This document shows, piece by piece, positions 2,413-64,000 of a stretch of 64,000 bases of DNA; within the stretch, counting starts at the first letter, position 1, and every line of letters starts with the position of its first letter. Made by a program: the position numbers and the translations under genes. This stretch comes from an uncultured Rhodospirillaceae bacterium (lineage in GTDB: Bacteria > Pseudomonadota > Alphaproteobacteria > SP197), in contig CALGGB010000095.1 of NCBI GenBank assembly GCA_937880925.1, forward strand, positions 4,782 through 68,781, in the 5' to 3' direction. The notes below the pieces were generated by a model. That model was not told the origin of the DNA and did no database searches. It worked only from the letters and a program-made list of their open reading frames with translations.

Positions 2413-3462
2413 CTAGAAGCCGGCCTTCAATTCTTCCCACATGTTGGAGGCCTTCTCGCGGACCTCGGGGTTCCACTCATCGAAGAAGACGCCCAGCGCC
2501 ATGACCTTGTCGGGGTCCTCGATGCCCAGTTCGACAAGCAGGTCCTGGTTGGCGGTCTCGAAGGACACCTTGTTGACCGATCCGTAGCCGTACTCCTCGA
2601 TCATGAACACGCCGGCCTCGGGCGAGAGCGTGGCGTCGAGATAGGCATAGGCCTCGTCCTCGTCGCCGGGGCCGTCCTTGATCATGATGCTGGAATCGAC
2701 CCAGGTCAGGATGCCTTCCTTGGGGATCATGTAGCCGACGTCGTAGCCCTGCCGCTTGAGCGATGCGTAGGCGTCGTTCCAGGCATAGGCCGCGACGATC
2801 TCGCCGGAGGCCAGCGCCTGCTCCACGTCCGACTGGCTCGACCAGTAGTACCGCAGCAGCGGCCGCTGCTCGACCAGCAACTGGCGGCAGCGATCGAGAT
2901 CGGCATCGCTCATCTGATAGGGGTTCTCGATCCCCAGGATCAGTGCTGCCTCCAGGAACCCGGCATCGACGGAATCACGCTGGGCCAGGCGGCCGCTGTA
3001 CTTCTCGTCCCACAGGATGCCCCAGCTATCGTTGCCGACGTACTCGGGCGCCAGATCCTTGCGGTAGAGCACGGAGGAGTTGCCCCAGGCCAGCGGCGCA
3101 CCCCAGGTCTCGCCCTCGTAGCTGATGCCCGTGATGTCCTTGAGCTGGGGGAAGACGTTCTCCCAGTTCGAAAGGCGCGAGGTGTCGATCTGCTTGGCCA
3201 GGCCCGCATCACGCCAGCGCCCGATCAGATAGCTGGTGGGCTGCACGATGGTCGGGGCGTAGCCTGCGCGGACCTTTTCGATGGCCTCGTCGTTGTCGGC
3301 ATACAGCAGGTAGCCCGGTGCTCCGAACTCGGCATCGAAGCCGGGGCGGAGTTGCTCGACGTCATAACCCGACCAGGTGAAGATCTGGATCGTGGACTCG
3401 GCGGCGGCGCGCTGCGTCACCATCGGCAGCGAAACGGTGGCGATGCCGACCGAGGCCAACAC
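2413..3462 (-). CDS. Polyamine (spermidine/putrescine) ABC transporter periplasmic binding protein, PotD/PotF family. Orphan: no cognate permease adjacent.
   Basis: 349 aa, PotF-like throughout. GTG start directly abuts an in-frame TAG (see findings). Confidence 0.7.
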   Translation of the reverse strand: MLASVGIATVSLPMVTQRAAAESTIQIFTWSGYDVEQLRPGFDAEFGAPGYLLYADNDEAIEKVRAGYAPTIVQPTSYLIGRWRDAGLAKQIDTSRLSNWENVFPQLKDITGISYEGETWGAPLAWGNSSVLYRKDLAPEYVGNDSWGILWDEKYSGRLAQRDSVDAGFLEAALILGIENPYQMSDADLDRCRQLLVEQRPLLRYYWSSQSDVEQALASGEIVAAYAWNDAYASLKRQGYDVGYMIPKEGILTWVDSSIMIKDGPGDEDEAYAYLDATLSPEAGVFMIEEYGYGSVNKVSFETANQDLLVELGIEDPDKVMALGVFFDEWNPEVREKASNMWEELKAGF

Positions 3463-3537
3463 CTAATTCATCTGGCGCCGCGTCATGGTGTGCGCGGCAA
3501 GCCGATCCTTGAACTCGGAAAGTTCCATGCGTTTCAT
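3463..3537 (-). other. 24-codon upstream ORF (MKRMELSEFKDRLAAHTMTRRQMN) with strong SD (GGAGGA). Its TAG stop directly abuts the GTG start of the PotF-like gene. Either a leader peptide or the interrupted N-terminus of the binding protein.
   Basis: Read directly from the sequence. SD is 7 nt upstream of the ATG at 3537. No SD precedes the GTG at 3462. Confidence 0.35.
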
Positions 3538-3665
3538 TTTGTTGTCCTCCCAGGACGTGCCGAATTACCCCGCGGCGCACCAAGGGCGGCAACGCCGCAT
3601 GGGGCAGTTTGCGCCCAATCGTCCTGCCTGCAAAGACCACGATACAGTTGTGGGGATCGGCGGGG

Positions 3666-12464: not shown

Positions 12465-13790
12465 GTGGCCGAAACCTTCGATCTCATTCTGCGCGGCGGG
12501 CAGGTCTTCTCGCCCGGCGGCCTGCTCGAAACCGATGTCGGTGTCCGCGACGGCCGTATCGTGCGCATCGGCCAGATCGCCCCTGAACAAGGCGGCGAGC
12601 TGTTCGACGCCCGGGGACTGACCGTGCTGCCCGGCGTGATCGACACGCAGGTCCACTTCCGTGAGCCCGGCAACGAGCACAAGGAGGATCTGGCGACCGG
12701 TTCGGCCGCCGCCGTGGCGGGCGGTGTCACCGCGGTCTTCGAGATGCCCAACACCAGCCCCTCCACCACCACCGCCGAGGCGATGGAAGACAAGCTCAAG
12801 CGCGCTGCAGGGCGCATGCTCTGCGATCATGCCTTTTTCATCGGTGCTGCCGACAACGCCGATCACCTTGCTGATCTGGAGCGGATGCCCGGCTGCTGCG
12901 GCGTGAAGATCTTCATGGGAAGCTCCACCGGCAGCCTGCTTGTCGAGGACGATGCCGCGCTGGCGAAAATTCTGGCAGCCGGCCGCCGTCGCGTCGCCAT
13001 CCATGCTGAGGACGAGCCTCGCCTGAAGGAGCGCAAGAAGATCGCCGAAGAGAGCGGCGATGTCGCCGACCATCCCAACTGGCGTGATGTCGAATCCGCC
13101 CTGAAGGCGACCCACCGCATCGTTGCTCTCGCGCGCGAGGCCAACCGGCCGATCCACGTCCTCCACATCACCACTGCCGAGGAACTGGAGTTTCTGGCCG
13201 GCGTGAAGGATGTCGCCACCGTGGAGGCGACACCCCAGCATCTGACCATGGCCGCGCCAGATTGCTACACGCGCATGGGCACCCTGGCGCAGATGAACCC
13301 GCCGATCCGTGAGGCGCGCCACCGCGATGCCCTTTGGCAGGCGGTGCGCGAGGGTGTCGTGGATGTGCTGGGTTCCGACCACGCACCCCATACCCGGGAG
13401 GAAAAGGAAAAGCCCTATCCGGCCAGTCCGTCGGGCATGCCCGGCGTGGAGACCATGTTGCCGCTGATGCTGAGCCACGTTTCCAGCGGTCGCTTGTCAC
13501 TGACGCGTGTGGTCGACCTGCTCTGCGCCGGCCCCCAGCGCATCTACAACATCCGCGGCAAGGGTCGCATCGCCCTGGGCTACGACGCCGACTTCACCGT
13601 CGTCGACCTCAAGGCGCGCCGCACCCTGAGCCACGACATGATGCACAGCAAGGTCGGCTGGACGCCCTTCGACGGCCTGAAGGTCCAGGGCTGGCCGATG
13701 GCGACCATCATCCGCGGCGGCTTTGCCATGCGCGACGGCGAACTGGCGCATGAGCCCCAGGGCAAGCCGGTGCGTTTCTGGGATACCTGA
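12465..13790 (+). CDS. pyrC: Dihydroorotase (cyclic amidohydrolase, type I)
   Basis: 441 aa. Motif PGVIDTQVHFREPG...TGSAAAVAGGVTAVFEMPNT. GTG start. Confidence 0.7.
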   Translation: MAETFDLILRGGQVFSPGGLLETDVGVRDGRIVRIGQIAPEQGGELFDARGLTVLPGVIDTQVHFREPGNEHKEDLATGSAAAVAGGVTAVFEMPNTSPSTTTAEAMEDKLKRAAGRMLCDHAFFIGAADNADHLADLERMPGCCGVKIFMGSSTGSLLVEDDAALAKILAAGRRRVAIHAEDEPRLKERKKIAEESGDVADHPNWRDVESALKATHRIVALAREANRPIHVLHITTAEELEFLAGVKDVATVEATPQHLTMAAPDCYTRMGTLAQMNPPIREARHRDALWQAVREGVVDVLGSDHAPHTREEKEKPYPASPSGMPGVETMLPLMLSHVSSGRLSLTRVVDLLCAGPQRIYNIRGKGRIALGYDADFTVVDLKARRTLSHDMMHSKVGWTPFDGLKVQGWPMATIIRGGFAMRDGELAHEPQGKPVRFWDT

Positions 13791-50065: not shown

Positions 50066-51154
50066 TCAAAAGCGCTGTCTCTTGTTTCCCGCCTCGATCG
50101 TGTGACCGTCCACATGCGGGATGTAGCCGTCTCCCGTCATCGCGCCCTTGGGCACGGCCTTGGCGTTTGCCGGATCGGGGAAGGGGAAGTGGCAGCTTGC
50201 CCAGTGGCCGGGCGCGACTTCCTCGTACTTGGGCGCGACTTCCAGGCACTTCTTCTGCACGAAGGGGCAGCGGGTGTGGAACTCGCAGCCGCTGGGACGG
50301 CGCATCAGGGAGGGGATTTCGCCCTGCAGCTCCAGCTTGTCGCGGCGCTTGTCGGGGTCGGGCTCGGGCACGGCGGCGAGCAGGCCCAGGGTGTAGGGGT
50401 GGGCCGGGCGCTCGAAGATCTCCTTGGTCGAACCCTGCTCCACGAAGCGGCCCAGATACATGATCGCCAGCTTGTCGGAGACGTGGCGCACCACCGGCAG
50501 GTTGTGCGTGATGATGAGGTAGGACAGGCCCAGCTCGCGCTGCAGCCGGTTCATCAGGTTGAGGATCTCGCCCTGAACCGAAACGTCGAGGCCCGCCGTC
50601 GGTTCGTCGGCGATGATCAGCTTGGGCTCCAGCGCCAGGGCGCGGGCGACGCCGACGCGGCGCGCCTGACCGCCCGATAGCTGGTGCGGGTAGGCGGCCA
50701 TGAAACCCTGGTGCAGGCCGACCAGGTCGAGCAGACGTCGCGCCTCCTCGCCCAGGTTGGCAACGCCCATGTTGTGGATGCGGAAGGGCTCGGTGATGCT
50801 CGCGCGCACGTTCTTGCGCGGCGACAGGCTGGCGACGGGATCCTGGAACATCATCGCGATGTTGCGGCGGATATCGCGGAACTGGCCGTCTTTCAGGCCC
50901 ACAAGCTCCTTGCCGTTGAATTCGATGCTGCCTTCCTGGGCCTTGACCAGGCCGATGATGGCGCGCCCCAGGGTGGTCTTGCCCGAGCCGGACTCGCCGA
51001 CCAGACCGAAGGTCTCGCCGCGGCCCAGGCTGAATGAAACCTTCATCACGGCATCGATGAACGGATCGTCGATGCGCTTGATCAGCGACTTCACCAGGCC
51101 CGCGGTGCGGAACCGGACGCGCAGGTCCTTCACGGTGATGATGTTATCGGCCAT
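50066..51154 (-). CDS. Peptide-type ABC transporter ATP-binding protein (DppF-like)
   Basis: Walker A GESGSGKTT, signature LSGGQARR, C-terminal oligopeptide-type extension. Confidence 0.8.
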   Translation of the reverse strand: MADNIITVKDLRVRFRTAGLVKSLIKRIDDPFIDAVMKVSFSLGRGETFGLVGESGSGKTTLGRAIIGLVKAQEGSIEFNGKELVGLKDGQFRDIRRNIAMMFQDPVASLSPRKNVRASITEPFRIHNMGVANLGEEARRLLDLVGLHQGFMAAYPHQLSGGQARRVGVARALALEPKLIIADEPTAGLDVSVQGEILNLMNRLQRELGLSYLIITHNLPVVRHVSDKLAIMYLGRFVEQGSTKEIFERPAHPYTLGLLAAVPEPDPDKRRDKLELQGEIPSLMRRPSGCEFHTRCPFVQKKCLEVAPKYEEVAPGHWASCHFPFPDPANAKAVPKGAMTGDGYIPHVDGHTIEAGNKRQRF

Positions 51155-52127
51155 CGCGCACCAGGAAGCAGCGGGCGGAATGCTGGTCGCTCACCGCATA
51201 GTGGTCCGGCGGCGATTCGTTGCAGGGCTCATAGCGGTGCGGGCAGCGCGGCGAAAAGATGCAGCCCTTGGGCAGGTCGATGAGGTCCGGCACGCTGCCC
51301 GAGATGGTCGGCAGCTCCTGGCGCGTCTCCTCGATGCGGGCGGGATCGCATTCCAGGAGCATGCGTGTGTAGGGATGCTGGGCGCGGTGGAACAGGTCAT
51401 GGACCTCTCCCTGCTCCACGACCTCGCCGGCGTACATCACGATCACCTCGTCGCACAGCTCGGCGATCAGGCCCAGGTTGTGGCTGACGAAGAGCATGGA
51501 ACACTCGAACTCTTCCCGCAGCTCTTTCATCAGATGGATGATCTGGGCTTCCAGCGTCACGTCCAGCGCGGTGGTCGGTTCGTCGGCGATCAGCAGGGAA
51601 GGGTTCATCATCAGCGCCATGGCGATGCAGATGCGCTGGCGCATGCCGCCGGAGAACTGATGGGGATGGTCGTCCAGACGCCGCACGGCGTCGGGAATGC
51701 CGACCTGGGCGAGCATGTCGGCCGCGCGCTTCCTCTTCTGCGCCATCGGAATCTTCTGGCGGTAGAGGATATCGGTCATCTGGGTGCCGATGGAGATCAC
51801 CGGGTTGAGCGCCGTCATCGGGTCCTGGAAGACCATGGAGATGCGCTGGCCACGCAGGTCGGTGAGCTGGCTGTTGCTCATCTTGAGCACGTCGTCGCCC
51901 TGGAAGATGACCTCCGAGCCGTCCTCGATCACCGCGTTGGGCGCCAGCAGGCGCAGGACGGTGTTGATCAGGGTGGACTTGCCGCAACCGGATTCACCAA
52001 CGATGCCGACGATCTTGTTCCTGGGCACGTTGATGTCGACGTGGCGCAGGGCGCGCACCTTACCGCGTGCCGTGCGGAAGCTGACCGACAGGTCGCGGAC
52101 GTCCAGGACGTGCTCGTTGCCGCTCAT
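51144..52127 (-). CDS. Peptide-type ABC transporter ATP-binding protein (DppD-like)
   Basis: ATG 52127 (MSGNEHVLDVRDLSV...). Walker [10 protein letters not shown], signature FSGGMRQR. The 647-aa track ORF is an out-of-frame extension over the permease. Confidence 0.8.
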   Translation of the reverse strand: MSGNEHVLDVRDLSVSFRTARGKVRALRHVDINVPRNKIVGIVGESGCGKSTLINTVLRLLAPNAVIEDGSEVIFQGDDVLKMSNSQLTDLRGQRISMVFQDPMTALNPVISIGTQMTDILYRQKIPMAQKRKRAADMLAQVGIPDAVRRLDDHPHQFSGGMRQRICIAMALMMNPSLLIADEPTTALDVTLEAQIIHLMKELREEFECSMLFVSHNLGLIAELCDEVIVMYAGEVVEQGEVHDLFHRAQHPYTRMLLECDPARIEETRQELPTISGSVPDLIDLPKGCIFSPRCPHRYEPCNESPPDHYAVSDQHSARCFLVRDGR

Positions 52128-53014
52128 CGGTCTTTTTTCATCTTCGGGTCGAAGACATCGCGCATGGCCTCGCCCAGGAACGTGAAGCCCAGGGTGGTGA
52201 TGATCAGCGGAATGCCGCCCGCGATGACCAGCCAGGGCGTGTTGCGGATGAAGGAATAACCGTCGTTCAGGATCGAACCCCAGGACGGCGTCGGCGGTTT
52301 TACGCCCAGGCCCAGGAACGACAGGCCCGCCTCGATCGTGATGACGACCGGAATGTCCATGCTGGCAAGGATCAGCAGCGGCGCGATCAGGTTGGGCAGC
52401 AGGTGCGAGACCATGACGCGCACCGTGCCGGCGCCCAGCGATCGCTCGGCCAGGATGAACTCCGTGTTCTTCAGCGACAGGGTCGCCGCGCGCGTTATTC
52501 GCGCGTAGCCCGGTACGCTGGTGACGATGACGACGAAGATGATGGTCTCCAGGCTCGGCCCCACCACGGTGATCACCGCCAGGGCGAACATGATGACCGG
52601 GAAGGCGCGCACCGCGTCGAACAGCAGCATCAGCAGATTGTCGAGCCAGCGCGGCCCGTAGCCCGCCAGCATGCCCAGGATCAGCCCCAGGACGAGCGAG
52701 CCGCCGACCGAAACCAGCGCCACGTAAAGCGCGATGCGTCCGCCGTGGAGAATGCGGCTGAAGGTGTCGCGGCCCAGGTTGTCGGTGCCCAGAAGATGCT
52801 CGAAGGAGGGCGGGGCCAGGCGCGCCTTGATGTCGAGCGCCTTGTAGTCGTAGGGCGAGAGTATGTCGGCGCCGGCCGCGGCGAGCACGATCAGCAACAC
52901 CAGGATCAGCCCGAAGCAGCCCAGCGGATCGCGCAGGAGCTGCCAGAGCCAGGAAAACCGTGGTTCGCGCTTGATTGGCGCGCCGGCCTCGGTGGTTTCG
53001 ATCGCGGCTGTCAT
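52124..53014 (-). CDS. Peptide-type ABC transporter permease (DppC-like)
   Basis: ATG 53014 (MTAAIETTEAGAPIKREPRFSWLWQLL...). Permease layout. Confidence 0.8.
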   Translation of the reverse strand: MTAAIETTEAGAPIKREPRFSWLWQLLRDPLGCFGLILVLLIVLAAAGADILSPYDYKALDIKARLAPPSFEHLLGTDNLGRDTFSRILHGGRIALYVALVSVGGSLVLGLILGMLAGYGPRWLDNLLMLLFDAVRAFPVIMFALAVITVVGPSLETIIFVVIVTSVPGYARITRAATLSLKNTEFILAERSLGAGTVRVMVSHLLPNLIAPLLILASMDIPVVITIEAGLSFLGLGVKPPTPSWGSILNDGYSFIRNTPWLVIAGGIPLIITTLGFTFLGEAMRDVFDPKMKKDR

Positions 53015-53016
53015 CG

Positions 53017-53961
53017 CTACAGTCCCTGCCGTACGCGCGGATCGATCCATGCCGCCAGAAGGTCCGAGAGCAGGGTCGAAAGGGCAAACAGCATGGTCGT
53101 CACCAGCACGCCGCCCATGACGATGGGATAGTTCCGGGTGTTGACCGCATCGACCACCATCTTGCCCACGCCCGGCCGGGCAAAGATGATCTCGGCAAAG
53201 ACAGCGCCGGAAATCAGGCCGCCGACACCCACGCCGAGCAGGGCGATGGTCGGCAGAATCGCGAGCTTGAGAGCATAGACATAGGTGATCCGGCGCCGGG
53301 GCAGGCCATAGGCCCGCGCCATGCGGATGTGATTCTCGCCCAGCACTTCCAGCATCGAGGTGCGCACGAAGCGGGCGAGATATCCGACCCAGCCCAGGCC
53401 GACCGCCAGGCCAGGAAGCACCAGGTGCATCGCCTGGTCGCCCAGGTCGCCGTTTTCCCCCGCACCGATGGCAGGGAACCAGCGCAGGTTCACGGCAAAC
53501 AGCAGCAGCGCATAGAGCCCGACGATAAACGATGGAATGGCGATACATCCCACCGACAGCACACCGGTCAGTTTGTCGATCCAGCTGTTGCGGTGGACGG
53601 CCGAGAAACAGCCCAGGGGGATGCCGATCATGATCGACCAGCCCAGGCCGGCAATCGCCAGGGCGATGGTATGGGGAAGCTGCTCGCCGATCATGGTGGA
53701 GACCGGACGGTTCGACCAGACATCGACACCCAGATCGCCGGTCACGACGTTGGTCAGGAAGTTGACGTACTGCACGACAAAGGGCTGATCCAGACCCATC
53801 TTGGCCTTGAATGCTTCGCGCATCTCCGGCGTCGCGCGGGGGCCAAGGGCAATGCCTGCGGGGTCGCCAGGTACCATGTGGATCGCCGCGAGCAACAGAA
53901 GCATCGCGAGACACACGATAAGCACCGCCAGTCCCAGGCGTCGGAACGTGTACAGCAGCAT
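53017..53961 (-). CDS. Peptide-type ABC transporter permease (DppB-like)
   Basis: 314 aa, multi-TM, permease family. Confidence 0.8.
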   Translation of the reverse strand: MLLYTFRRLGLAVLIVCLAMLLLLAAIHMVPGDPAGIALGPRATPEMREAFKAKMGLDQPFVVQYVNFLTNVVTGDLGVDVWSNRPVSTMIGEQLPHTIALAIAGLGWSIMIGIPLGCFSAVHRNSWIDKLTGVLSVGCIAIPSFIVGLYALLLFAVNLRWFPAIGAGENGDLGDQAMHLVLPGLAVGLGWVGYLARFVRTSMLEVLGENHIRMARAYGLPRRRITYVYALKLAILPTIALLGVGVGGLISGAVFAEIIFARPGVGKMVVDAVNTRNYPIVMGGVLVTTMLFALSTLLSDLLAAWIDPRVRQGL

Positions 53962-54053
53962 GATGAACCTATCGGGCGATGGATCGGGTTTTATGTCAAC
54001 CCTTCTGTCGGACGTATGTCCAAGAAGTCGTGGATGATCCCGCTCGCGGAGTG

Positions 54054-54905
54054 TTACTGCGGTGGCGGACCTTCCTGGTTGCGCGGCAGGTCGTCGGTGA
54101 TCGTGAACCAGCCGGCCTTTGATCCGACGTGAACATGATCGCCGGGGCGGATGCCGGGATCATCGTCCAGGCTGCCCATGGGCACTACGGTTATCTGTCG
54201 TTCGGGGTCGCGCCTGGGCATCAGGGAGCCGCAGGTTCGGCAGAAGGTCTGGGCGAAGAAACGCGCCTCGGGAAGCTTGAAGGTGGCGAGGTTCTCCCCG
54301 CCCCTGAGGAACACGACATCGTCGAAGCCGGCAAAGGCGTTGCTGGCGTGCGCCGCCGCCCGGCCGTGCCGGCAGCGCGAGCAGTGGCAGTGGCGTGCCG
54401 TCCTGAAGGGCGCGGTGATCTCAAAGGCAACCGCACCGCACAGGCAGCTTCCGCCGACCTTGCCGTCGGTGCGCGGGGGCGCCACGGGCCGCTCAATGCT
54501 CGGCAGGCCGCTCCCGGCGGGGTAGGCGTCGTGGCGCGGCAGATCAGAGGTCAGGGTGAACCATGGCGCCCGGCTGGCAACGAAGATCTCGGCCTCCGCG
54601 GCCGGTCCCTCCTCATGGCCGCCTGCCGGCACCGACCACTCCGCGCCCTCAGCCCCGGCGAAGGGGACCTTCGCGCCACAGGTGCCGCAGAACGCCCGAG
54701 GCAGGGTGGGCGAGGATGGATAGACAACGATGGCATCCGTGCCCGAGATGAAGCGGAGATCGCCCGGTGCCACGGTCCAGTAGGTGGCGAAGGCCGCGCC
54801 GTGGGCCTTGCGGCACATGCTGCAGTGGCAGTGGCTGGCGCCGTGCGGCTGGCCTGTGATCTCCCAGGTGACGGTGCCGCACAGGCATTGCCCCTTGTTT
54901 GCCAT
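54054..54905 (-). CDS. Tandem GFA (glutathione-dependent formaldehyde-activating / CENP-V-like) domain protein
   Basis: Two GFA-type zinc-Cys modules (CLCGTVTWE...HCHCSMCRK and CLCGAVAFE...HCHCSRCRH), each followed by a CxxCG motif. Confidence 0.7.
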   Translation of the reverse strand: MANKGQCLCGTVTWEITGQPHGASHCHCSMCRKAHGAAFATYWTVAPGDLRFISGTDAIVVYPSSPTLPRAFCGTCGAKVPFAGAEGAEWSVPAGGHEEGPAAEAEIFVASRAPWFTLTSDLPRHDAYPAGSGLPSIERPVAPPRTDGKVGGSCLCGAVAFEITAPFRTARHCHCSRCRHGRAAAHASNAFAGFDDVVFLRGGENLATFKLPEARFFAQTFCRTCGSLMPRRDPERQITVVPMGSLDDDPGIRPGDHVHVGSKAGWFTITDDLPRNQEGPPPQ

Positions 54906-54928
54906 CGCTTGCTCCAGGCGGCTTTCGC

Positions 54929-56971
54929 TCAGTTGAGATCGCGCGGGATCGCCTCGTTCCAGCTCTTGCCATAGACGCGCCGCTCGTTCTCGAAGGCTTC
55001 ACAATCGGCCCAGAACAGCCAGTCGTCCTTCGAGCAGGCAAGCGTCGAGCGGGTTTCACTCCGCACGTCGAACCCATCGGAAGGGCGTCGGAAACGCCAG
55101 GTGATTTCAATCGCAATGCGCGCCGAGGTCGGATCGCCCTCGGTGATGGAGAAGCGCTGTTCGACCCGCGCGCCGACCTCCCAGCCGTCCAGCTTGTTGA
55201 AGCGGTTCATGCCGCCGTCGCTGATGACGGTGACGCAGGCATGGCCGGTGGTGTCGTCGCGTTCGACACGGCGACTGTAGCTGCCGGGAGCAAGCCGCGA
55301 GACGTCGACCGGGCGCGCGCTCTCGGGCGGGCCGAAGGGGCGCAGCTTGCCGTCCTCGTCGCGCGGCTGGCGCGTCGGCAGGGTAAGCGTGCTGGAACCC
55401 GTCGCCATGGTCACGGTGACGGTCTCAGGCGAGGGCCAGAACAAGGGCCACAGGCTGTTGGAGAGCGCCACGCGGATGCGGTTGCCCGCCGGAAACTGCT
55501 GGGCGATGTCGTTGAGCTGGATGCGCACGCGATAGCTTTTGCCCGGTTCCAGCGGCTCCGGATTCTCGTGGCTGTCGCGGTGGGTAAGGTTGAGCACGCC
55601 GTAGGTGACGCGTGTCGAGGCGCCGTCGGGCGCCACACTGGAGAGACGGGCGACGACGAAGGCGTTGGGCTTGTCGGCGCTGACGTCGAGTTCCAGCACC
55701 GGCGCGCCCATGATCTCCAGCGGCGCCTCCAGGGGGGCGGTCTCGAAGACGATGGAGCAGCCGTCGTCCTCGCGCTGATCGGCGGGGCTGTCGGGCACCA
55801 GGCCATAGCCGCACCACTCGCCCTGGCGCAGGCCCATGGTCATGGGCGTGCGGATCAGTGCCGGCGCGCCGTCGACGGCCAGGTCGCCCAGGCGGCCGTC
55901 AGCGTTGAGGTGCAGGGTGCGCGCCTTGATGCTGGGCGAGGGCCAGCTCGCCTCCGCGACCCAGCGGCCCGGCCGCTCGGCGTACCATGTCGCAGGCGCG
56001 ACATGGTCCTGCATCCACACCCGGTATTCCGGCTCGTCCATGATCCCGGTGTCGATGTCCTTCAGCCAGTGGTCCCACCAGCGCAGGGTATCCTGCAGAA
56101 AACCGATGCGCGGGCCGGGTACGGCAAAGTGCGGGTACTTGTGCGCCCAGGGGCCGACCAGACCCTTCTTGGGTCCCTTCAGGCCGGCAAGCAGGCGCGG
56201 CACGGTGTTGGAATAGCCGTCGGCCCAGCCGCCCACCGCATAGACCGCGGCTTCGATGTCGGCATGGTTCTCGATCACCGAGCCGTGCTGCCACATCGCG
56301 TCGCGGCGCTGATGGGGGAGCCACTGCAGCACCCAGGGATCGTTGGCCTTCAGGCGGTCCATCCACAGCTCGCGCCATTTCTCGCCGACCAGCTTCGGGT
56401 CGGGCGGGCGGGTGTTGAGCCCCAGCATGGTGGCGCCCCACGACATGGTGTCGTTGATCATGACGCCGCCCATGTAGTGGATGTCGTCGCTGTAGCGGTC
56501 GTCGGTCGAGGCGATGGTGACGATGGCCTTCAGCTCGGGCGGGCGCCGCGCGGCGACCTGCAGGCCGTTGAAGCCGCCCCAGGAGATGCCGATCATGCCG
56601 CACTTGCCGGTGCACCAGGGCTGGGCGGCGATCCACGCCAGGATCTCCAGCGCATCGTCCTGTTCCTGTTTGAGGTACTCGTCCTCCAGGATGCCGTCGG
56701 ACTCGCCCGAGCCGCGGATGTCGACGCGCACACAGGCATAGCCGTGACCGGCGTAGTAGGGGTGGGTCAGTTCGTCGCGGTCGGCCGTGCCGTCGCGCTT
56801 GCGATAGGGCAGGAACTCGAAGATCGCGGGCACCGGGTCGGTTTCGGCGTCCTCGGGCAGCCAGATGCGGGCGGCCACCTTCACGCCGTCAGACAGGGTG
56901 ATCCAGGCGTTCTCGATCTCGCGCACCTTGCGCGGGTACTGGGTCACCACTTCGATGTCGTCGACGGCCAT
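54929..56971 (-). CDS. CocE/NonD family hydrolase (S15 X-Pro dipeptidyl-peptidase fold)
   Basis: 680 aa. Nucleophile region GISWGG. Family-typical N-terminal alpha/beta domain plus C-terminal beta-sandwich. Confidence 0.75.
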   Translation of the reverse strand: MAVDDIEVVTQYPRKVREIENAWITLSDGVKVAARIWLPEDAETDPVPAIFEFLPYRKRDGTADRDELTHPYYAGHGYACVRVDIRGSGESDGILEDEYLKQEQDDALEILAWIAAQPWCTGKCGMIGISWGGFNGLQVAARRPPELKAIVTIASTDDRYSDDIHYMGGVMINDTMSWGATMLGLNTRPPDPKLVGEKWRELWMDRLKANDPWVLQWLPHQRRDAMWQHGSVIENHADIEAAVYAVGGWADGYSNTVPRLLAGLKGPKKGLVGPWAHKYPHFAVPGPRIGFLQDTLRWWDHWLKDIDTGIMDEPEYRVWMQDHVAPATWYAERPGRWVAEASWPSPSIKARTLHLNADGRLGDLAVDGAPALIRTPMTMGLRQGEWCGYGLVPDSPADQREDDGCSIVFETAPLEAPLEIMGAPVLELDVSADKPNAFVVARLSSVAPDGASTRVTYGVLNLTHRDSHENPEPLEPGKSYRVRIQLNDIAQQFPAGNRIRVALSNSLWPLFWPSPETVTVTMATGSSTLTLPTRQPRDEDGKLRPFGPPESARPVDVSRLAPGSYSRRVERDDTTGHACVTVISDGGMNRFNKLDGWEVGARVEQRFSITEGDPTSARIAIEITWRFRRPSDGFDVRSETRSTLACSKDDWLFWADCEAFENERRVYGKSWNEAIPRDLN

Positions 56972-57058
56972 GTTCGCTTTCCCTGATCTGTGCGGCGCGA
57001 CGCTAGACCTGCCGTGGCGCGGCGGTCAAACGCCGCGGCTGTTTCCAGACCCGCGGCG

Positions 57059-57090
57059 GACAAAAAGAGAGGGACCGGCGAACCGGTCCC
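57059..57090 (-). terminator. Rho-independent terminator (minus strand): GGGACCGG-CGAA-CCGGTCCC followed by TCTCTTTTTGT
   Basis: Perfect 8-bp GC stem plus a T-tract on the minus strand, about 190 nt downstream of the TPR gene stop. Confidence 0.6.
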
Positions 57091-57275
57091 TCAGGCAAGG
57101 CAGGCGGGGTCGGATCGCAGGGACGCGATCCTGGGTTCGCAAGGGCTGCGATCCCGGAGCGGCGCCCTCTGGGAATGTGCGGTGGGCGGTGGCGCCGTCG
57201 GAGCCGACTTTGAGGGGCGCTGGTGACAACGTGATGTCGGCGGGATGACGATTTCGCCGCGGCGGTGGAAGAGAT

Positions 57276-58952
57276 TCAGGCGCCGCGTTCGCCAAAGAGC
57301 AGGGTGACGTTGGTGCGCCGGTTGCCAAAGCCCTGGCGAAAGGCGAAGCGGTCGGAACGGTGGAACATGTTGGAGCCGAAGAGCACGGCCCGATTGGGCC
57401 TGTGCGCCACCGTGACCTGCTCGGCATCACTGAGGAACGCGCCGATGCGCGTCTTCACGTCCGGTGCGTTCTTGCGCAGGTTGATGTCGGTCCAGTCCCA
57501 GTCCAGCGGCTGCTCCTTGGCAAAGAGCACCAGGCCGCCATGATCGGGATCAAGACTGGCGTCCTCCGGCCCGATCCAGAAGTTGAAGGTGACCGCGGCG
57601 TCATCGGTGTGGGCCTCAACGCCGTTGCCCTCCGCGCCGTAGCGATAGACCCACATGTTGTGCAGGTGGCGCCCGCCCAGCACGGTCGGCATCAGCGCCT
57701 GCAACTCCTCCGCGATGCGGTAGAGCAGGCTGCAGGCAAAGCCGTCGGCCATGTAGGAGGTGACGTAGCCTGTCGCGTTGTGGCCAAAGAAGATGGTCGA
57801 TTCCCGGCAGAACCGCTGCAGCGCCTCGTGCGCCTGTGGGGAGAGGAAGCCGTCGATCGCCGTGATGGACGTTGGGCTTGCCAGGAACCCTTCCTCGATC
57901 GCACGCCAGTCGTTCCCGGCGCCGATCGCGGCGCCGCCTTCGATGTCGACATCGGCAAACCGTACCGCGTGTTCGTGCATCCCGGCGATGGCCTGGGCAG
58001 CCTCGCCGTCCAGCACCTGGGGCTTGGCGGGATCGAGCCCTCGTAAATCCAGCTCGGCAGCGCCGGCATCGTAGAAACCCGCGGCATCCTCCCAGCTCGG
58101 TTCAAGCAGCCCCATGCCGATCATGTGGCGAAGCTGCTCGGCCGCATCCACCAGACGTGCCCGGCAGGTGCGCAGGCTGGTTTCTGGTCCTCCCCGCACC
58201 AACGACGGATCGAAGACTCCGGGATCGCTGTGCAGTGGCCCGCGCCGCTCGGCGAACATCGTGTGGAAGGTGGTGTGCGCCTGCGCGTACTGCCGCAGTC
58301 CCAGTTGCGCCGTCCCGATGTTGTTGCGCGCGCTGCGCATGGCGCCGTCGCGTTCCAGTGCGCGCCGGTAGCAGGCGATCGCCGCGTCGAAGCGCTGTTC
58401 GTCCTCCTCGATCGTGCCCTGCAGGAACCAGGCCTCGGCGGGCGGACTGTCCATGGTCAGGACCGGCGCCAGGGTCGCGGCAGCATCGCTGCGTCGCCGG
58501 GCCGCACATTGCAGACGGGCGAGGTTGATGCGCGCGGCGACATGGCCGGGATTGGCTGCAACCGCAGCGGTAAAGGCGTCCTCGGCTTGCCGGGGGGCCT
58601 CGCCCAGGAGCAGGCCCAGGTTGTTCCAGGCATCGGCGAAGTCGGCCTTCAGGCGCACCGCCTGGCGATAGGCATCGATCGCCGCGTCGGTCTGACCGGC
58701 CCGGCTGAGCGCCAGACCATGATTGAAGCGGTAGAGCGGACGTCCCGGCGCTGCCTTCACGGCCTTGCCCAGGTGGTCGAGGGCGTCCCGCGTCCGGTTC
58801 TGTGCGAGCAGCAGCAGGCCGCAGCCGTGGTGGGCGCCGGGGTGGCCGGGAACCTTTGCCAGCACCTTCTCGTAGAGCGCGCGAGCGGCCGTGGCGTTGC
58901 CGGCCTGATGCTGTTGCTGGGCCTGACGGAAGGCGGCCTCGACCGGGTCCAT
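57276..58952 (-). CDS. TPR-repeat protein with C-terminal putative 2OG-Fe(II)-oxygenase-like domain
   Basis: N-terminal TPR repeats. C-terminal HTDD...FNFWI...H arrangement resembling HxD...H. Confidence 0.5.
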   Translation of the reverse strand: MDPVEAAFRQAQQQHQAGNATAARALYEKVLAKVPGHPGAHHGCGLLLLAQNRTRDALDHLGKAVKAAPGRPLYRFNHGLALSRAGQTDAAIDAYRQAVRLKADFADAWNNLGLLLGEAPRQAEDAFTAAVAANPGHVAARINLARLQCAARRRSDAAATLAPVLTMDSPPAEAWFLQGTIEEDEQRFDAAIACYRRALERDGAMRSARNNIGTAQLGLRQYAQAHTTFHTMFAERRGPLHSDPGVFDPSLVRGGPETSLRTCRARLVDAAEQLRHMIGMGLLEPSWEDAAGFYDAGAAELDLRGLDPAKPQVLDGEAAQAIAGMHEHAVRFADVDIEGGAAIGAGNDWRAIEEGFLASPTSITAIDGFLSPQAHEALQRFCRESTIFFGHNATGYVTSYMADGFACSLLYRIAEELQALMPTVLGGRHLHNMWVYRYGAEGNGVEAHTDDAAVTFNFWIGPEDASLDPDHGGLVLFAKEQPLDWDWTDINLRKNAPDVKTRIGAFLSDAEQVTVAHRPNRAVLFGSNMFHRSDRFAFRQGFGNRRTNVTLLFGERGA

Positions 58953-58957
58953 CAGGG

Positions 58958-59857
58958 TTATTCCGCCGCGGCGGCCGGGCGGGCGAGCGCCAGCATGGCC
59001 TGGCCCATGTCGGCGATCAGCGTTTCGATGCAGGCCGCAAGCCCGGCCATGCCCGGGCCGCGCACCAGGGCCTTTTCATCCATGTAGAGCCCCCGGTTCA
59101 TCTCCACCTGCACGGCGTGCAGGCCCACCTCGGGCCGACCGTAGTGTTCGGTGATGAAGCCGCCGGGATAGGGATCGTTGCGCCGCACCGTCAGGCCGCT
59201 GCGGCGCAGGCTGGCGCTGGCGGCCTCGGTCATGGTGCGGTCGCAGGAGGCCCCGAAGCGGTCGCCCAGCACGATGTCGACCCGGGCGCGCGCCGCGCCC
59301 TCGTGGCCGACCGAGGGCATGGAGTGGCAGTCGATCAGGCAGGCCGCGCCGAAGCGTTGCCGGGTTTCCTCCAGCAGTTCGGCCAGGGCCGCGTGGTAGG
59401 GCAGGTAGCAGCGCTCCAGGCGTGCGGCGGCCTCGGCCACGGGCAGTCTGGTGCGGTAGATCTCCGCCCCGCCGGCAACGACACGCGGCACAGTCCCAAG
59501 GCCCGAGCGCACCCGTGGGCTGCGGCTGTTGACCGGGCCGCTCAGCGCACCGTCGAACATGGCGGGATCGAGCTCGAAGGGTTCGCGGTTGACGTCGAGA
59601 TAGGCGCGGGGAAAACGCGCCACCACCAGGGGGCAGCCCAGCTCGGGCGCGCGGGCCACCAGCTCGTCGACAAAGGCATCCTCGGAGCGTCGGATGGCCT
59701 GGGCATCCAGGCGGCTGGCGGAAAGGAAAGCTTCGGGATAGTCGCGCCCGCTATGGGGCGAGGAGACGACCACGGGCAGGCGTTGCCGTTCCGGGCGCCG
59801 GATCACGACCCGGGTGGGGTCGGTGTCGGCTTCGCTGTCGTTTGCGCGCGTCACCAC
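58958..59857 (-). CDS. N-formylglutamate amidohydrolase family protein (HutG-like)
   Basis: 299 aa with family pattern (VVSSPHSGRDYP...DVNREP...IDCHSMPS). Confidence 0.7.
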   Translation of the reverse strand: MVTRANDSEADTDPTRVVIRRPERQRLPVVVSSPHSGRDYPEAFLSASRLDAQAIRRSEDAFVDELVARAPELGCPLVVARFPRAYLDVNREPFELDPAMFDGALSGPVNSRSPRVRSGLGTVPRVVAGGAEIYRTRLPVAEAAARLERCYLPYHAALAELLEETRQRFGAACLIDCHSMPSVGHEGAARARVDIVLGDRFGASCDRTMTEAASASLRRSGLTVRRNDPYPGGFITEHYGRPEVGLHAVQVEMNRGLYMDEKALVRGPGMAGLAACIETLIADMGQAMLALARPAAAAE

Positions 59858-59955
59858 ACCGATTTAGACTAGCCCCATGGTGATGTCATCCCCCGGCTCC
59901 AGGGCCTCCGTGGCCCGTCGGCGGTCCCCTCGGGCAGAGCAGGACTGAGCGGGCG

Positions 59956-60315
59956 ATGGCACGCATCCTTCTTGCAACCCAGGATGACGTGCTGCGCGGC
60001 TACATTTCACGGCAGTTGACCCGCATGGGCCACGGCGTTCTGCCCGTCACCTGCCCGCGCGAGGCGGTCGGGTTGCTGATGCCCGGCGCCTTTGACATCC
60101 TGATCGCCCAGGCCGACATGGACGGGGTCGATGGGCCCGAGTTCGCCCGCCGCGCGGCAGCGGCCGTTCCCGGCCTGCGCATCTTCTTCCTGGAAGGCTT
60201 CCGGGTCCTGCCGCTGAAGGAGGGCGCCCGCACGGTGCTGGCCGACGATACGCTGGAGCCCGCCTTCCATCTCAACCGTCTGGCCCATGTGATCGACAAC
60301 CTGCTGGCTGCGTGA
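59956..60315 (+). CDS. Single-domain response-regulator receiver-like protein
   Basis: 119 aa. CheY-like acidic pocket (ATQDD) and DILIAQADMDGVDG. Atypical spacing, so it may be a degenerate receiver. Confidence 0.4.
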   Translation: MARILLATQDDVLRGYISRQLTRMGHGVLPVTCPREAVGLLMPGAFDILIAQADMDGVDGPEFARRAAAAVPGLRIFFLEGFRVLPLKEGARTVLADDTLEPAFHLNRLAHVIDNLLAA

Positions 60316-60351
60316 TAGGCGGCAAACCCTGATTTCCCGGACGGCGGAACC

Positions 60352-61521
60352 ATGAGCGAGACAAGCCCCTTTGCCCCCATCGACGAGGCGATCCGAGCGA
60401 TCGCCGAAGGCCGGATGCTGGTCGTGGTCGATGATGAATCGCGCGAGAACGAGGGTGATATCGTGATGGCTGCCGACAAGGTGACGCCCGAGGCCGTCGC
60501 CTTTATCGCCATGCATGCCCGCGGCCTGCTCTGCACGCCCATGGAAGGCGAACGGCTGGACGAGCTGGACCTGCCCCAGATGGTCTCCAACAACACCGAA
60601 AGCCACAGCACGGCGTTCACCGTCTCGGTCGACTACCGTTACGGCACCACCACCGGCATCTCGGCCTCGGACCGGGCCAAGACGATCCGGGCGCTGGCGG
60701 GCGACGGCGGCAACCGCGACGTGCGCGGTGGTGATTTCGCCCGGCCGGGCCACATCTTCCCCCTGCGCGCGCGCGAGGGTGGCGTGCTCACGCGTGCGGG
60801 CCACACCGAGGCCGCTGTCGATCTCGCCCGCATGGCAGGCTGTTATCCCGCCGGCGCGATCTGCGAGATCGTCGAGCCCGACGGCACCATGATGCGCCTG
60901 CCGCGGCTGATCGAATTCGCGCGCGAGCACGGCCTGCTGCTGATCTCCATTGCGGACCTCATTGCCCACCGGCGCAGCACCGAGAAGCTGGTCGAACTGG
61001 TCGAGACCGAACCCTTTGCCACGCGCCACGGCATGTTCGAGGCGCGCATCTACCGCAGCCTGATCGACGGCACCGAACACCTGACCCTCGTCCACGGCGA
61101 TCTGCGCAAGGCAAGCGACGTGCTGGTGCGCGTCCACAGCGCCAGCGCGCTTGATGACGTCTTCGGCCCGCTGCGCGGCAACGGCCGCAGCCTGGTTGAC
61201 CTCGCCATCGAACGGATCGCGGGCGAGGGGGCAGGGGTCTTCGTCTATCTGCGCGGTGCGGAAGGCTGGGGACTGGGCCTCAACCGCAAGCGCATCTACG
61301 ACCAGGACGACAAGGAGACCAACCTGCTGACCGGTTCGGACTGGCGCCAGTACGGCACGGGTGCGCAGATTCTCTACGATCTGGGCCTGCGCTCCTTCCG
61401 CATCCTGACCAACAATCCCGCGCATTACCGCGGCATCGAGGGGTATGGCCTGACCATCACGGCCAAGGTTCCCTTCACCGAAGCCGCCGCCACCGAAGCG
61501 GCGCGGGCCGGCGGAGATTGA
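60352..61521 (+). CDS. ribB: 3,4-dihydroxy-2-butanone-4-phosphate synthase fused to a GTP-cyclohydrolase-II-like domain (RibBX type)
   Basis: N-terminal DHBP synthase signature (ENEGDIVMAA...). C-terminal GCHII-like fold lacks the Zn-binding cysteines. Confidence 0.8.
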   Translation: MSETSPFAPIDEAIRAIAEGRMLVVVDDESRENEGDIVMAADKVTPEAVAFIAMHARGLLCTPMEGERLDELDLPQMVSNNTESHSTAFTVSVDYRYGTTTGISASDRAKTIRALAGDGGNRDVRGGDFARPGHIFPLRAREGGVLTRAGHTEAAVDLARMAGCYPAGAICEIVEPDGTMMRLPRLIEFAREHGLLLISIADLIAHRRSTEKLVELVETEPFATRHGMFEARIYRSLIDGTEHLTLVHGDLRKASDVLVRVHSASALDDVFGPLRGNGRSLVDLAIERIAGEGAGVFVYLRGAEGWGLGLNRKRIYDQDDKETNLLTGSDWRQYGTGAQILYDLGLRSFRILTNNPAHYRGIEGYGLTITAKVPFTEAAATEAARAGGD

Positions 61522-61588: not shown

Positions 61589-61663
61589 GGGCGCGTAGCT
61601 CAGCGGGAGAGCACTACGTTGACATCGTAGGGGTCACTGGTTCAATCCCAGTCGTGCCCACCA
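61589..61663 (+). tRNA. tRNA-Val (anticodon GAC), CCA encoded
   Basis: GGGCGCG acceptor stem pairs with CGTGCCC. Anticodon loop TTGACAT. T-arm GGTTCAATCC. 3' ACCA. Confidence 0.9.
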
Positions 61664-61757
61664 TCCTTCTCCTTGAAATCATTGAATAATTTACCCTAGC
61701 CTCTGGGCCTCGCCGCCCGGCGTTTCGTGCCGTGTAAGCGCGATGTAAGCGCGGCGG

Positions 61758-61788
61758 GCAAAAAGAGAGGCGAGCCCGAAAGCTCGCC
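61758..61788 (-). terminator. Terminator-like motif (minus strand): GGCGAGC-TTTCGG-GCTCGCC followed by TCTCTTTTTGC. Near-copy of the motif at 57059-57090.
   Basis: Read directly. No intact minus-strand gene is upstream of it. It lies among IS remnants. Confidence 0.4.
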
Positions 61789-61992
61789 CTTCGGTAACGA
61801 TGTTTCGGCATAGCGCACGCTGGGCCGCTCAACGATCGCCAGTGGACCCCGGCACGCCCAATAGATCATGACCCAAGGGGGAAGCTTGCCGCTGCTATCG
61901 GCAACACAATCGAAGATCGCGGGATCGGTCGCCGCGTCCAGGTTGGGGACATTCGCTGCCGCCAATGCTCGGGCTTCAGCTGGCGTTTCAGC

Positions 61993-62290
61993 TTGCATCC
62001 AACAGTCGAACGTCGAGAGCCCATACTTGTCGATGACCACGCCCGGGAAGCTCTGGCCCTGGTGTTCGACACCTCGATCGGAGGTCGACGCCTGGCCCGG
62101 GAGCTCGACATCCTGATCGCCCGACGCCGCAGGCCCGTGATTTTCGTCAGCGACAACGGTACGGAGATGATCTCGCGCGCCATGCTGGAATGGGCCAACC
62201 GCACCGGAGTGGCGTGGCACTACATCGCACCGGGCAAGCCGATGCAGAACGGGTTTATCGAGAGCTTCAATGCTCGCCTTGCCGCAGTTG
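61993..62290 (+). pseudogene. IS3-family transposase (OrfB integrase-core, rve) C-terminal fragment
   Basis: [85 protein letters not shown] matches the DDE integrase-core C-terminal block (SDNGxEF...PGKPxQNGxIESFN). No N-terminal half and no OrfA. Confidence 0.6.
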
Positions 62291-62651
62291 CCGCAAGCAC
62301 AACGGCACGGCGGTGGTGGCGCTGGCGGGCTACAAGGACGATCAGGTCTCCTGGTCGGGCGACAAACGCCAGATCTACGCCTCCTCGCCAGGTCAGCGGC
62401 GCGCCTTCTGCGGCAAGTGCGGCACGCCGCTGACCTGGGAAGGCGACGGCGGCAAGCTGGGACCAATCTTCGAACTCCACATCTCCACCTTCGACGAACC
62501 GGACCTGCTGGTCCCCACGGCCCACGCCTTCGAGCACGAGCGCATCTCCTGGTTCGACGTCGCCGACAACCTGCCCCGTTACCAGGGGTTCATCGACGGC
62601 AGCGCGCCGCTGCGCCACGGCCCGGTCAAGGACGGCCTGCCCCAGGGCTGA
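62190..62651 (+). pseudogene. GFA-family (CENP-V/GFA) protein, N-terminally truncated remnant
   Basis: C-terminal FCGKCGTPL and CxxCRK blocks are present. The N-terminal CxC module is absent. The 5' part of the ORF overlaps IS3-derived sequence in another frame. Confidence 0.45.
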
Positions 62652-62756
62652 GTCGGCTTCAGACCTCTTCGTTGTTGATTTGCACTGAGAGTTGACCCGG
62701 GATTTTCATCGAGAAGTGACCCGGTTGGAAGATAGTCCCGCGGAGCGGGCTGTTGT

Positions 62757-63578
62757 TCAAGGTGGTGATTTTTCCTTTCGTGTTTTTGGCGCGGCGGAGC
62801 TGGCCCTGAACCGGAAGCTGTCATTGCCGGTCTCGAGGATGTGGCAGTGGTGGGTGAGCCGATCGAGCAGTGCGGTTGTCATCTTGGCATCGCCGAACAC
62901 GCCGGCCCACTCGCTGAAGCTGAGGTTGGTGGTGATGACGACGCTGGTGCGCTCGTAGAGCTTGCTGAGCAGGTGGAAGAGAAGGGCACCACCTGATGGG
63001 CTGAACGGCAGGTAGCCCAGTTCGTCGAGGATGACGAGATCGAGGCGCAGCAGTCGCTCGGCGAGCTGGCCTGCCTTGTTCATGGCCTTTTCCTGTTCCA
63101 GCGCATTGACCAGATCGACGGTGGCGAAGAACCGGACCTTCTTGCGGTGATGCTCGACCGCCTGGACGCCGAGTGCGGAAGCGATGTGGGTCTTGCCGGT
63201 TCCGGGTCCGCCGATCAGCACGATGTTATCGGCGCCATCGATGAACTCGCTGCGGTGCAACTGGCGGACCATGGCTTCGTTGACCTCGCTGGCAGCGAAG
63301 TCGAAGCCGGTCAGGTCCTTGTAGGCCGGGAAGCGGGCGGCCTTGATCTGGTAAGCGATGGACCTGACCTCGCGCTCGGCGACCTCGGCTTTGAGCAGTT
63401 GGGAGAGGATCGGCACAGCCGTATCGAACGCCGGTGCTCCCTGCTCCATGAGGTCGCCGACAGCCTGGGCCATGCCGTACATCTTGAGACCGCGCAGCAT
63501 GACCACGACGGCGGCACTGGCAGGATCATGACGCACGGGCGGCCGCCTTCCTGCGCAGCATGTCGTAGCGTGCGACAT
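62757..63578 (-). CDS. istB: IS21-family helper ATPase IstB
   Basis: Walker [10 protein letters not shown], Walker [11 protein letters not shown], IstB C-terminal block. Likely true start at M 63500 ([10 protein letters not shown]...), overlapping the istA end. Confidence 0.85.
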
Positions 63579-64000
63579 TGGCCTTGGGTTCGCGCCGCAA
63601 GCTCAGCACCTGTGGGGCATCGATAGCGGCGAGGCTGGTCGGCTTGCCGTCGAGCAGCCGGTGGAGGATGTTGAGGGTGTGGGTCTTGGTCGGCACGCCG
63701 GCCTCGAGCGCCAGTTCGACGGCACAGAGCACCGCCTGCTCGTCGTGCTGCAGGACAAGCGCCAGGATCTCCACCATCTCCCGGTCACCACCGGTGCGCT
63801 TGAGCAGATGACCCTGCAACTGCCGGAATGCATCAGGCATCTCAGTGAACGGCGCTCCATTGCGCAGGGCTCCGGGCTTGCGCTGGATCACAGCCAGATA
63901 GTGCCGCCAGTCATAGATCGTGCGCCCTGGCAGGTGATGGGATCGCTCAATAATCCGGCCATGCTCGCACAGGATCTGCCCCTCGGCGGCGATGACGAGC
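63526..64000 (-). CDS. istA: IS21-family transposase IstA, C-terminal part (5' end outside window)
   Basis: The frame is open to the window edge. C-terminal region typical of IstA precedes and overlaps istB. Confidence 0.75.

Follow-up and report, generated by a model that had tools for sequence, protein, structure and literature searches.

The right-hand end of a 64,000-nt stretch of contig CALGGB010000095.1 (here called the window), from an uncultured freshwater alphaproteobacterium, carries a tRNA-Val(GAC) gene followed by a series of broken and intact mobile-DNA features. From left to right, we found native ribBA and tRNA-Val; an ~0.6-kb mobile remnant made up of a small gene that we call orfX, its terminator, and a piece of an IS3-family transposase gene; a truncated gene of the GFA family; an insertion sequence (IS) of the IS21 family; and, beyond the end of the window, an aryl-polyene gene block followed by high-G+C DNA. 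An initial annotation had drawn attention to this region, and all of the features that it listed exist where it placed them or close by, far beyond chance. We consider it likely that the region is a multilayer recombination scar forming the left border of an ~19-kb block of acquired DNA. The arrangement is of a known kind, an ordinary horizontal-transfer scar, here in an uncultured lineage. What was observed directly is the anatomy of the locus with the positions of its junctions, the break in base composition, the intact state of the IS21 element, and the reappearance of the orfX/IS3 module in unrelated surroundings.

The ribBA gene occupies positions 60352 to 61521 and is followed, on the plus strand, by the tRNA-Val(GAC) gene at 61589 to 61663 (ARAGORN; Rfam tRNA, 65.1 bits, E value of 5.6e-13), the only tRNA that ARAGORN identified in the entire window. 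Using a scan of one genome per species, we found ribBA and then tRNA-Val(GAC) in 8 alphaproteobacterial metagenome-assembled genomes (MAGs), and the conservation of this order marks the tRNA gene as native. Upstream of ribBA (50100 to 61500), gene order was collinear with that of three distant relatives (L024, L027, and L031; L numbers designate the contigs and loci compared) over at least 10 kb, and the left side of the tRNA is therefore conserved core. The collinear genes include those for an oligopeptide ABC transporter, a peptidase, a tetratricopeptide repeat protein, FGase, and a response regulator. The G+C content of this core, measured in 500-nt windows over the 61.5 kb upstream, is 66.8% (standard deviation, 2.5%).

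A comparison with relatives located the end of this conservation. L011 and L012, the two closest relatives (86 to 90% DNA identity), match the window as far as 61667, 4 nt past the tRNA, and no further. The genes that follow the tRNA differ in all 7 relatives whose downstream sequence is long enough (that of L012 is just 230 nt) and encode amidohydrolases, a thiamine pyrophosphate enzyme, RimK, a UvrD helicase, an acyl-CoA ligase, an amine oxidase, and a methyltransferase, all at near-native G+C contents. Because these genes differ, the tRNA marks a synteny break; frequent integration at this site is not evident from the relatives. The suggestion in the initial annotation that the locus is an integration hotspot thus found little support, since the relatives carry ordinary metabolic genes at this position and repeats resembling att sites were seen in just two of them, L017 and L018. 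In L018, whose RibBA is 73% identical, three copies of the tRNA-Val 3' 18-mer TCCCAGGTGCGCCCACCA lie at 3344, 3445, and 3549, in ~102-nt tandem units right behind the tRNA (3344 to 3570); L017 has one degenerate copy at 12610. They resemble att-type scars or the product of a tandemly duplicated tRNA end.

The sequence that abuts the tRNA 3' end in the window is an AT-rich linker (61664 to 61716; no strand assigned) that is 96% identical to contig L115 and has no match in contig L114 or in any relative. The turn to AT-rich sequence noticed initially was borne out: the 37 nt at 61664 to 61700 have a G+C content of 35%, and the 23-mer quoted in that annotation has one of 22%. Weak Rfam matches to sbrA and BASRCII26 fell far under the gathering scores and were dismissed as chance.

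Beyond the linker, the minus strand of 61717 to 62025 carries orfX, a small gene whose conserved codons run from 62025 to 61813 and which belongs to a family of 75- to 83-aa proteins of unknown function. Searched in full with HMMER, a set of 1.84 billion representative proteins yielded 4 matches to this minus-strand frame, three of them small proteins (75 to 83 aa) that aligned across most of their length; thus, 61664 to 62025 contains a real small minus-strand gene, and by this count its family is very rare. In a separate homologue search with orfX (P0241), the query itself was the sole match. The contexts of the distant homologues (L116 to L118) contained no tRNA and no informative Pfam domains. 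Positions 61664 to 62025 had no matches in plasmid DNA and tblastn searches or in local BLAST against all loci, and neither orfX nor the other frames of this interval matched Pfam, PHROGs, or NCBIfam. The module sequences were absent from viral contigs in two exact-match scans; hence, there is no sign of a prophage origin for the module.

The window copy of orfX is damaged at both ends. Its native first ~8 codons are gone, with antisense IS3 sequence in their place, and the stop codon, TAA in L114 and L115, reads TAT (61810 to 61812), so that the frame continues to 61696 through a hairpin at 61768 to 61789. This hairpin, terminator-like on the minus strand only, consists of a 9-bp stem followed by CTCTTTTTGC. 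It lies 20 nt downstream of the orfX stop position and is therefore the terminator of orfX. The initial annotation had rightly described it as terminator-like; it had missed orfX, however, and took the hairpin to be an orphan. The third-codon-position G+C fraction (GC3) of orfX is 0.68, compared to 0.85 to 0.90 in native genes.

Positions 61717 to 62184 were found again, at 97% identity and with unrelated flanks, in L114 and L115, two contigs that span only 682 to 760 nt, and this recurrence indicates that the interval is itself mobile DNA. In L115, the module lies beside a near-identical tRNA-Val (74 of 75 nt) whose upstream flank is AT rich and unlike the ribBA spacer, while the L114 copy is separated by 112 unrelated nucleotides from a partial tRNA-Glu(UUC) gene (3' half) that precedes it. 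The neighbors of the module are thus tRNA-Val in two contexts, with tRNA-Glu nearby in a third. In both contigs, the IS3 piece has a 39-nt deletion (window positions 62076 to 62114) and is cut at window-equivalent 62184, where the left end of a second IS3-like element (ISSsp2-like, 87%) has intervened. In the window, the stretch deleted there spans the point where the two units of an imperfect 39-nt tandem repeat meet (62053 to 62091 and 62092 to 62130). The interrupting element and the deletion fall at positions 1 to 165 of L114 and 1 to 53 of L115, at the right-hand ends in reverse-complement orientation. Because the module is shared by L114, L115, and the window, the orfX/IS3 junction is old and has traveled as a unit. 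On the sequences compared, the IS3/GFA junction (62273 to 62280) is peculiar to the lineage of the window.

The IS3 piece (62026 to 62273, plus strand) is an internal, 82-codon fragment of an IS3-family OrfB transposase gene (Pfam rve, 8e-12; rve_3, 9.6e-10). It covers positions 238 to 324 of the 369 positions of the NCBIfam transpos_IS3 model and scores 66.9 bits versus a cutoff of 160. Base-by-base comparison with the IS3 transposase gene of the Phenylobacterium zucineum HLK1 plasmid showed 80.6% DNA identity to nt 678 to 919 of a 1,166-nt coding sequence, with similarity beginning abruptly at 62026, ending at 62273, and absent outside these limits; at the protein level, the two are 80% identical over 82 aa. 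Roughly 21% of the transposase coding sequence survives. Of the DDE triad, the second D and the E are retained (in DNG and ESFN motifs); the fragment lacks the first catalytic D, as well as OrfA, the frameshift site, the C-terminal ~70 aa, and both inverted repeats. Neither the orfA-orfB arrangement with its programmed frameshift, nor a complete DDE domain, nor terminal inverted repeats, by which the family is recognized, are found here, and by this comparison the piece is a relic derived from a member of the IS3 family and no element in itself. The identification of an IS3-family DDE fragment lacking OrfA and the N terminus therefore stands; its description as a 95-aa C-terminal piece does not.

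Overlapping this relic is an open reading frame (ORF) of 153 codons at 62190 to 62651 on the plus strand, which gene callers label "GFA." Its ATG and first 30 codons come from out-of-frame IS3 sequence, as the initial annotation had proposed in stating that the 5' end of the GFA gene was replaced by IS-derived sequence, and are fused to a 5'-truncated GFA-family gene (62280 to 62651; codons ~31 to 147). The remnant matches Pfam PF04828 with 45 bits versus a cutoff of 24.3 over profile positions 24 to 113 of 115, the first ~23 positions being missing, and aligns with full-length homologues of 147 to 160 aa from 62280 to 62285 on. Alignment to a 147-aa homologue showed that ~30 N-terminal codons have been lost, including those for four conserved cysteines (CxC/CMC and CHC); thus, neither a full-length GFA domain nor the full conserved set of zinc-binding cysteines is present.

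The G+C content of the GFA remnant is 68.5%, and its GC3 is 0.90 (0.85 in ribBA). Full-length GFA genes on the same strand lie 8 to 9 kb downstream of ribBA in L024, L027, and L031 and encode proteins 71 to 74% identical to the remnant, about the same divergence as that of RibBA from these relatives (69 to 70% identity). From its G+C content, its GC3, and these orthologue-like genes near ribBA in three distant relatives, the remnant looks native. Elsewhere in the window, 7 kb upstream of the truncated gene, a 283-aa protein with two GFA domains is encoded on the minus strand at ~54050 to 54905; an origin of the remnant as a recent copy of this gene was ruled out, as the two are only 29% identical. 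We infer that none of the remnants, namely orfX, the IS3 piece, the truncated GFA gene, and the hybrid ORF, still functions.

The IS21-family element begins 21 bp after the GFA stop codon (62651), at 62673; the initial annotation had correctly described an IS21 end with direct repeats, istB, and istA and had put the spacing at about 50 bp. The IstB-side part of this ISRsp3-like element lies in the window on the minus strand (62673 to 64000), and extension downstream revealed the other end at window-equivalent 65164, giving a complete element of 2,492 bp. Its inverted repeats are perfect and identical at 30 nt (TGTTGATTTGCACTGAGAGTTGACCCGGGA), with TG...CA ends. Inverted repeats containing multiple direct repeats are characteristic of IS21-family ends (PMC10122671); here, each end holds two internal repeats ~24 nt apart, and the 24-nt direct repeats in the IstB-side terminal inverted repeat (62677 to 62700 and 62701 to 62724) match the R1/R2-type transposase-binding repeats described for the family (PMC10122671). 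The istB gene, for a 259-aa AAA+ helper ATPase (62757 to 63536, minus strand), is intact (NF038214, 278.3 bits versus a cutoff of 200; Pfam IstB_IS21, 4e-75). It is overlapped by istA, whose 3' part is in the window (63526 to 64000, minus strand) and which encodes a full, intact transposase of 511 aa in the identical contig L002 (IstA match to NF033546, 322.8 bits versus a cutoff of 160). The element aligns end to end (1 to 2492) with plasmid copies, at 89% identity with one on Sphingobium amiense pSAMIE_3 and at 79.5% with ISRsp3. With no copy found closer than the one at 89%, it counts as a distinct element of the ISRsp3-like group.

Six contigs from other samples stop 0 to 2 nt from the IstB-side terminus of the element. 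These contig ends suggest that the IS21 element borders on more than one flanking sequence in these communities and, together with its intact genes and ends, that it is probably active. An apparently multicopy IS21 element would explain the breaks in assemblies of the lineage here. The breaks may be due to strain heterogeneity, repeat collapse, or low coverage. Besides the six at the IS terminus, two contigs (L004 and L009) terminate precisely at the tRNA 3' end and four end 233 to 361 nt into the low-G+C block described below; the contigs named for breaks at 61663, at 62673, and inside the block are L004, L009, L093 to L099, L001, and L092 to L094.

Directly behind the IstA-side end of the element, the G+C content falls to 42 to 61% (mean, 55.1%) over ~16.8 kb, and only 3 of the 122 core windows are as low as the highest window of this block. 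The block corresponds to positions 1 to 16646 of L107 (window-equivalent ~65165 to 81900) and contains 18 genes, with the cluster genes transcribed toward the IS21 element in one operon-like array. Precomputed Pfam families on L107 identified a chain-length factor (Ketoacyl-synt_2, CLF), an acyltransferase, two acyl carrier proteins (ACPs), an AMP-ligase/ApeI-like protein, a glycosyltransferase, a thioesterase, a LolA-like protein, a 796-aa unannotated protein, a flavoprotein resembling FAD-dependent halogenases, a DUF3261 protein, two ketosynthases, an ApeP-like dehydratase, a ketoreductase, and a phosphopantetheinyl transferase. As far as genes alone can tell, the block encodes a full aryl-polyene-type cluster. 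The best homologues of two cluster proteins beyond the identical lineage are 58 to 78% identical, and the named ones are mainly from lower-G+C alpha- and gammaproteobacteria. A short contig, L113, covers the far side of the block. Some 250 bp before the first cluster gene begins, the G+C content there returns to 66 to 73%, at a point where an alpha/beta-hydrolase-like gene has its 3' end. A metagenome scan with the halogenase-like protein for the rest of the Joint Genome Institute (JGI) contig (L002/L107) gave one unrelated match, 35% identical; homologue search and exact look-up led to that contig. Between the IS21 end and the phosphopantetheinyl transferase gene lies a 129-aa ORF of ~45% G+C (L002 8790 to 9179; window-equivalent 65212 to 65601) with no Pfam or NCBIfam match; by eye, it has an N-terminal hydrophobic stretch ending in Cys (putatively signal or lipoprotein-like).

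Several independent assemblies agree on this structure. Using an exact look-up with RibBA, we recovered ten metagenome contigs from several projects that were 100% identical to the window (99.98% for one). L001, L002, and L107 are identical to the window and extend beyond it, the 27.6-kb JGI contig (L002/L107) reaching 21 kb past the tRNA. At least 7 independent assemblies from several projects were 100% identical across the junctions, and thus the junctions are not an assembly artifact. Formally, misjoins at repeats in metagenomes could have produced chimeras, given the metagenomic source, the ends of L004 and L009 exactly at the tRNA 3' end, and the ends of several contigs at the IS terminus. 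However, the tRNA/module, module/IS3, IS3/GFA, GFA/IS21, and IS21/island junctions were each crossed at 100% identity in independent projects and by different assemblers (in L001, L002, L003, L005, L006, L007, L008, L092 to L094, and L097, among others). This effectively refutes chimerism, to which we give almost no credence.

The layered scar of insertions and deletions at the edge of acquired DNA, as proposed in the initial annotation, is supported by the 55% G+C block, by the loss of similarity 4 nt past the tRNA, and by the recurrence of the module. The proposed boundary of acquired DNA proved to be a compositional shift that takes the form of a sharp step that coincides with the IS21 element and lies 1 kb away from the tRNA, with the native-looking truncated GFA gene in between. 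We infer that the module came to the tRNA before the IS3-associated deletions and that the IS21 element and the aryl-polyene block followed. A mobile segment carrying orfX would first have been placed directly 3' of the native tRNA-Val, and an IS3-family element in or next to this segment would then have been cut down by deletions. One deletion may have removed the left ~900 bp of the element and the start of orfX, fusing orfX to the internal IS3 piece, and a second may have taken away the IS3 right end, the initial 90 bp of the GFA gene in its native form, and the DNA between them. The ISRsp3-like IS21 element now lies 21 bp past the GFA stop codon, exactly on the step to the aryl-polyene block. 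An event associated with IS21, rather than with an integrase, presumably made the present junction with the foreign block: the element may either have delivered the block (for example, through a cointegrate or through recombination between IS copies) or have inserted at a preexisting border.

Four observations weigh against this layered history. No target-site duplication lies beside the IS21 element (...CTCTTCGT / IS / GCCAGTTG...), so a simple IS21 insertion is undemonstrated; in vitro, insertions of IS21-family elements make 5-bp repeats (PMC10122671). Yet no direct repeat flanks any of 11 related full-length plasmid copies (L102 to L106 and L119 to L124) beside their conserved TGTTGA...TCAACA ends, and since all 11 also lack a duplication, its absence here says little. 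Moreover, the far end of the block has no second IS21 copy, IS-end remnant, or repeat, nor was a copy of the IS-flank sequence found there when it was sought. The alpha/beta-hydrolase gene has no counterpart in the locus of any relative, and consequently the ancestral empty site was not reconstructed. Finally, the relatives that support nativeness of the GFA remnant are all distant ones, and no GFA gene is present in the 0.2 to 5.8 kb available from L011 and L012. The initial annotation had held that its proposal would fail if the IS21 element were single and complete, with an intact target-site duplication, in conserved core genome and if relatives carried the IS3 fragment as a functional gene. 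The element is indeed single and complete but lacks a duplication, its flanks differ in composition, and the IS3 piece is nowhere a working gene.

One alternative is a single classical integrase island in the tRNA-Val 3' end, running from 61664 to the end of the cluster, that later lost its integrase and distal att site and that carries the GFA gene as cargo. Foreign-looking DNA does begin exactly at the tRNA 3' end; the module in L115 adjoins a near-identical tRNA-Val with a different upstream flank; and in L018 and L017 the tRNA-Val 3' end is repeated shortly behind the gene, in the manner of att scars. Against such an island, the integrase and the direct repeat of the tRNA 3' end suggested for follow-up in the initial annotation were both looked for, and neither was found: there was no integrase among the called genes and Pfam hits in ~21 kb of extended contig, nor in 61664 to 62025, and no second copy of the tRNA 3' end (14 to 45 nt, mismatches allowed) in the window, L107, or L113. 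The compositional break sits at the IS21 element and not at the tRNA, the GFA remnant is native in G+C content and GC3 and has orthologue-like genes near ribBA in relatives, and the module in L114 lies 112 nt after a tRNA-Glu. We therefore regard this explanation as unlikely. That the 0.5-kb module (61717 to 62184 plus the linker at 61664 to 61716) is the conserved end of an undescribed tRNA-side integrative element, one with no recognizable integrase, strikes us as less probable still.

It is somewhat easier to imagine that the tRNA is incidental, the IS21 element itself having brought or relocated the aryl-polyene block (through cointegrate formation, for example, or recombination of one IS copy with another) and the IS3, orfX, and GFA pieces being older, unrelated junk in a variable intergenic zone. 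The element is intact and lies exactly on the G+C step without a target duplication, and assemblies cross its IstA-side end into the block and break at its IstB-side end in six samples, an asymmetry expected if the IS21 element and the island form a constant unit with more than one partner. However, no second IS21 copy or inverted-repeat remnant exists at the far end, a missing duplication is also the rule in the 11 related copies, and the breaks could stem from low coverage (~3x in several samples). The orfX module, for its part, is demonstrably mobile, and its start coincides exactly with the tRNA end. On balance, this account is possible and, in our view, the best of the alternatives, though we would not expect it to be correct. 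One might also suppose that the remnants work, the 153-codon hybrid ORF as a shortened GFA-like protein and the extended orfX as a variant of the original. Both are open reading frames, gene callers report the 153-aa ORF in most assemblies covering it and, in L002, L007, and L008, the long minus-strand frame in which orfX lies, and the locus is identical across samples. Yet the hybrid ORF lacks the first ~30 GFA residues, with the CxC and CHC cysteines, and has an out-of-frame IS3 sequence as its N terminus; orfX has lost its start region and stop and reads through its own terminator hairpin; and identity across samples reflects one clonal lineage, not selection. Function for these remnants is thus highly improbable. 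We favor the layered scar over each of these explanations.

So read, the locus is a cleanly resolved example of a freshwater alphaproteobacterium gaining an aryl-polyene cluster (of the membrane pigment and oxidative-stress protection type), and it illustrates how IS elements erode the edge of an acquisition. It also has a practical side for annotation: the "GFA" gene called by automatic pipelines at 62190 to 62651 is a hybrid pseudogene, and the long minus-strand ORF in some assemblies is mostly antisense IS3 sequence plus read-through of a small damaged gene. Current understanding is unchallenged by this locus, and the sole thread with any novelty is the orfX module that recurs beside tRNA genes.

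Compared with known systems, the region shares much with tRNA-associated genomic islands: foreign DNA that begins at the tRNA 3' end and is missing in relatives, IS debris, a deviant base composition, and secondary-metabolism cargo. It differs from them in that the searches revealed neither a tyrosine or serine recombinase near one end nor, at the distal border, a directly repeated tRNA 3' end, in that the G+C step lies 1 kb off, at the IS21 element, and in that a native-looking gene remnant stands between. The IS21 element itself resembles the ISRsp3-like group of its family, known from plasmids of sphingomonads and other alphaproteobacteria, in length, gene pair, and end architecture, with consecutive istA and istB and TG...CA repeats that contain direct repeats; the family also has a target duplication of 4 to 8 bp, and the 5-bp duplication of its description is missing here, as it is in the 11 related copies inspected. 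The IS3 relic is like its nearest relative, the P. zucineum HLK1 plasmid transposase, in the catalytic core of OrfB (80% over 82 aa, or 242 nt). The GFA remnant contains the PF04828 domain above the Pfam cutoff and is 71 to 74% like full-length homologues in related MAGs; unlike members of that family, it lacks the first ~30 residues and takes its start codon from IS3-derived sequence. Finally, the block beyond the window has the full gene set of the aryl-polyene clusters of Proteobacteria in one array (ketosynthase/CLF, ACPs, ApeI-like and ApeP-like proteins, ketoreductase, LolA-like protein, and transferases) and differs from them in forming a 55% G+C block within a 67% G+C genome.

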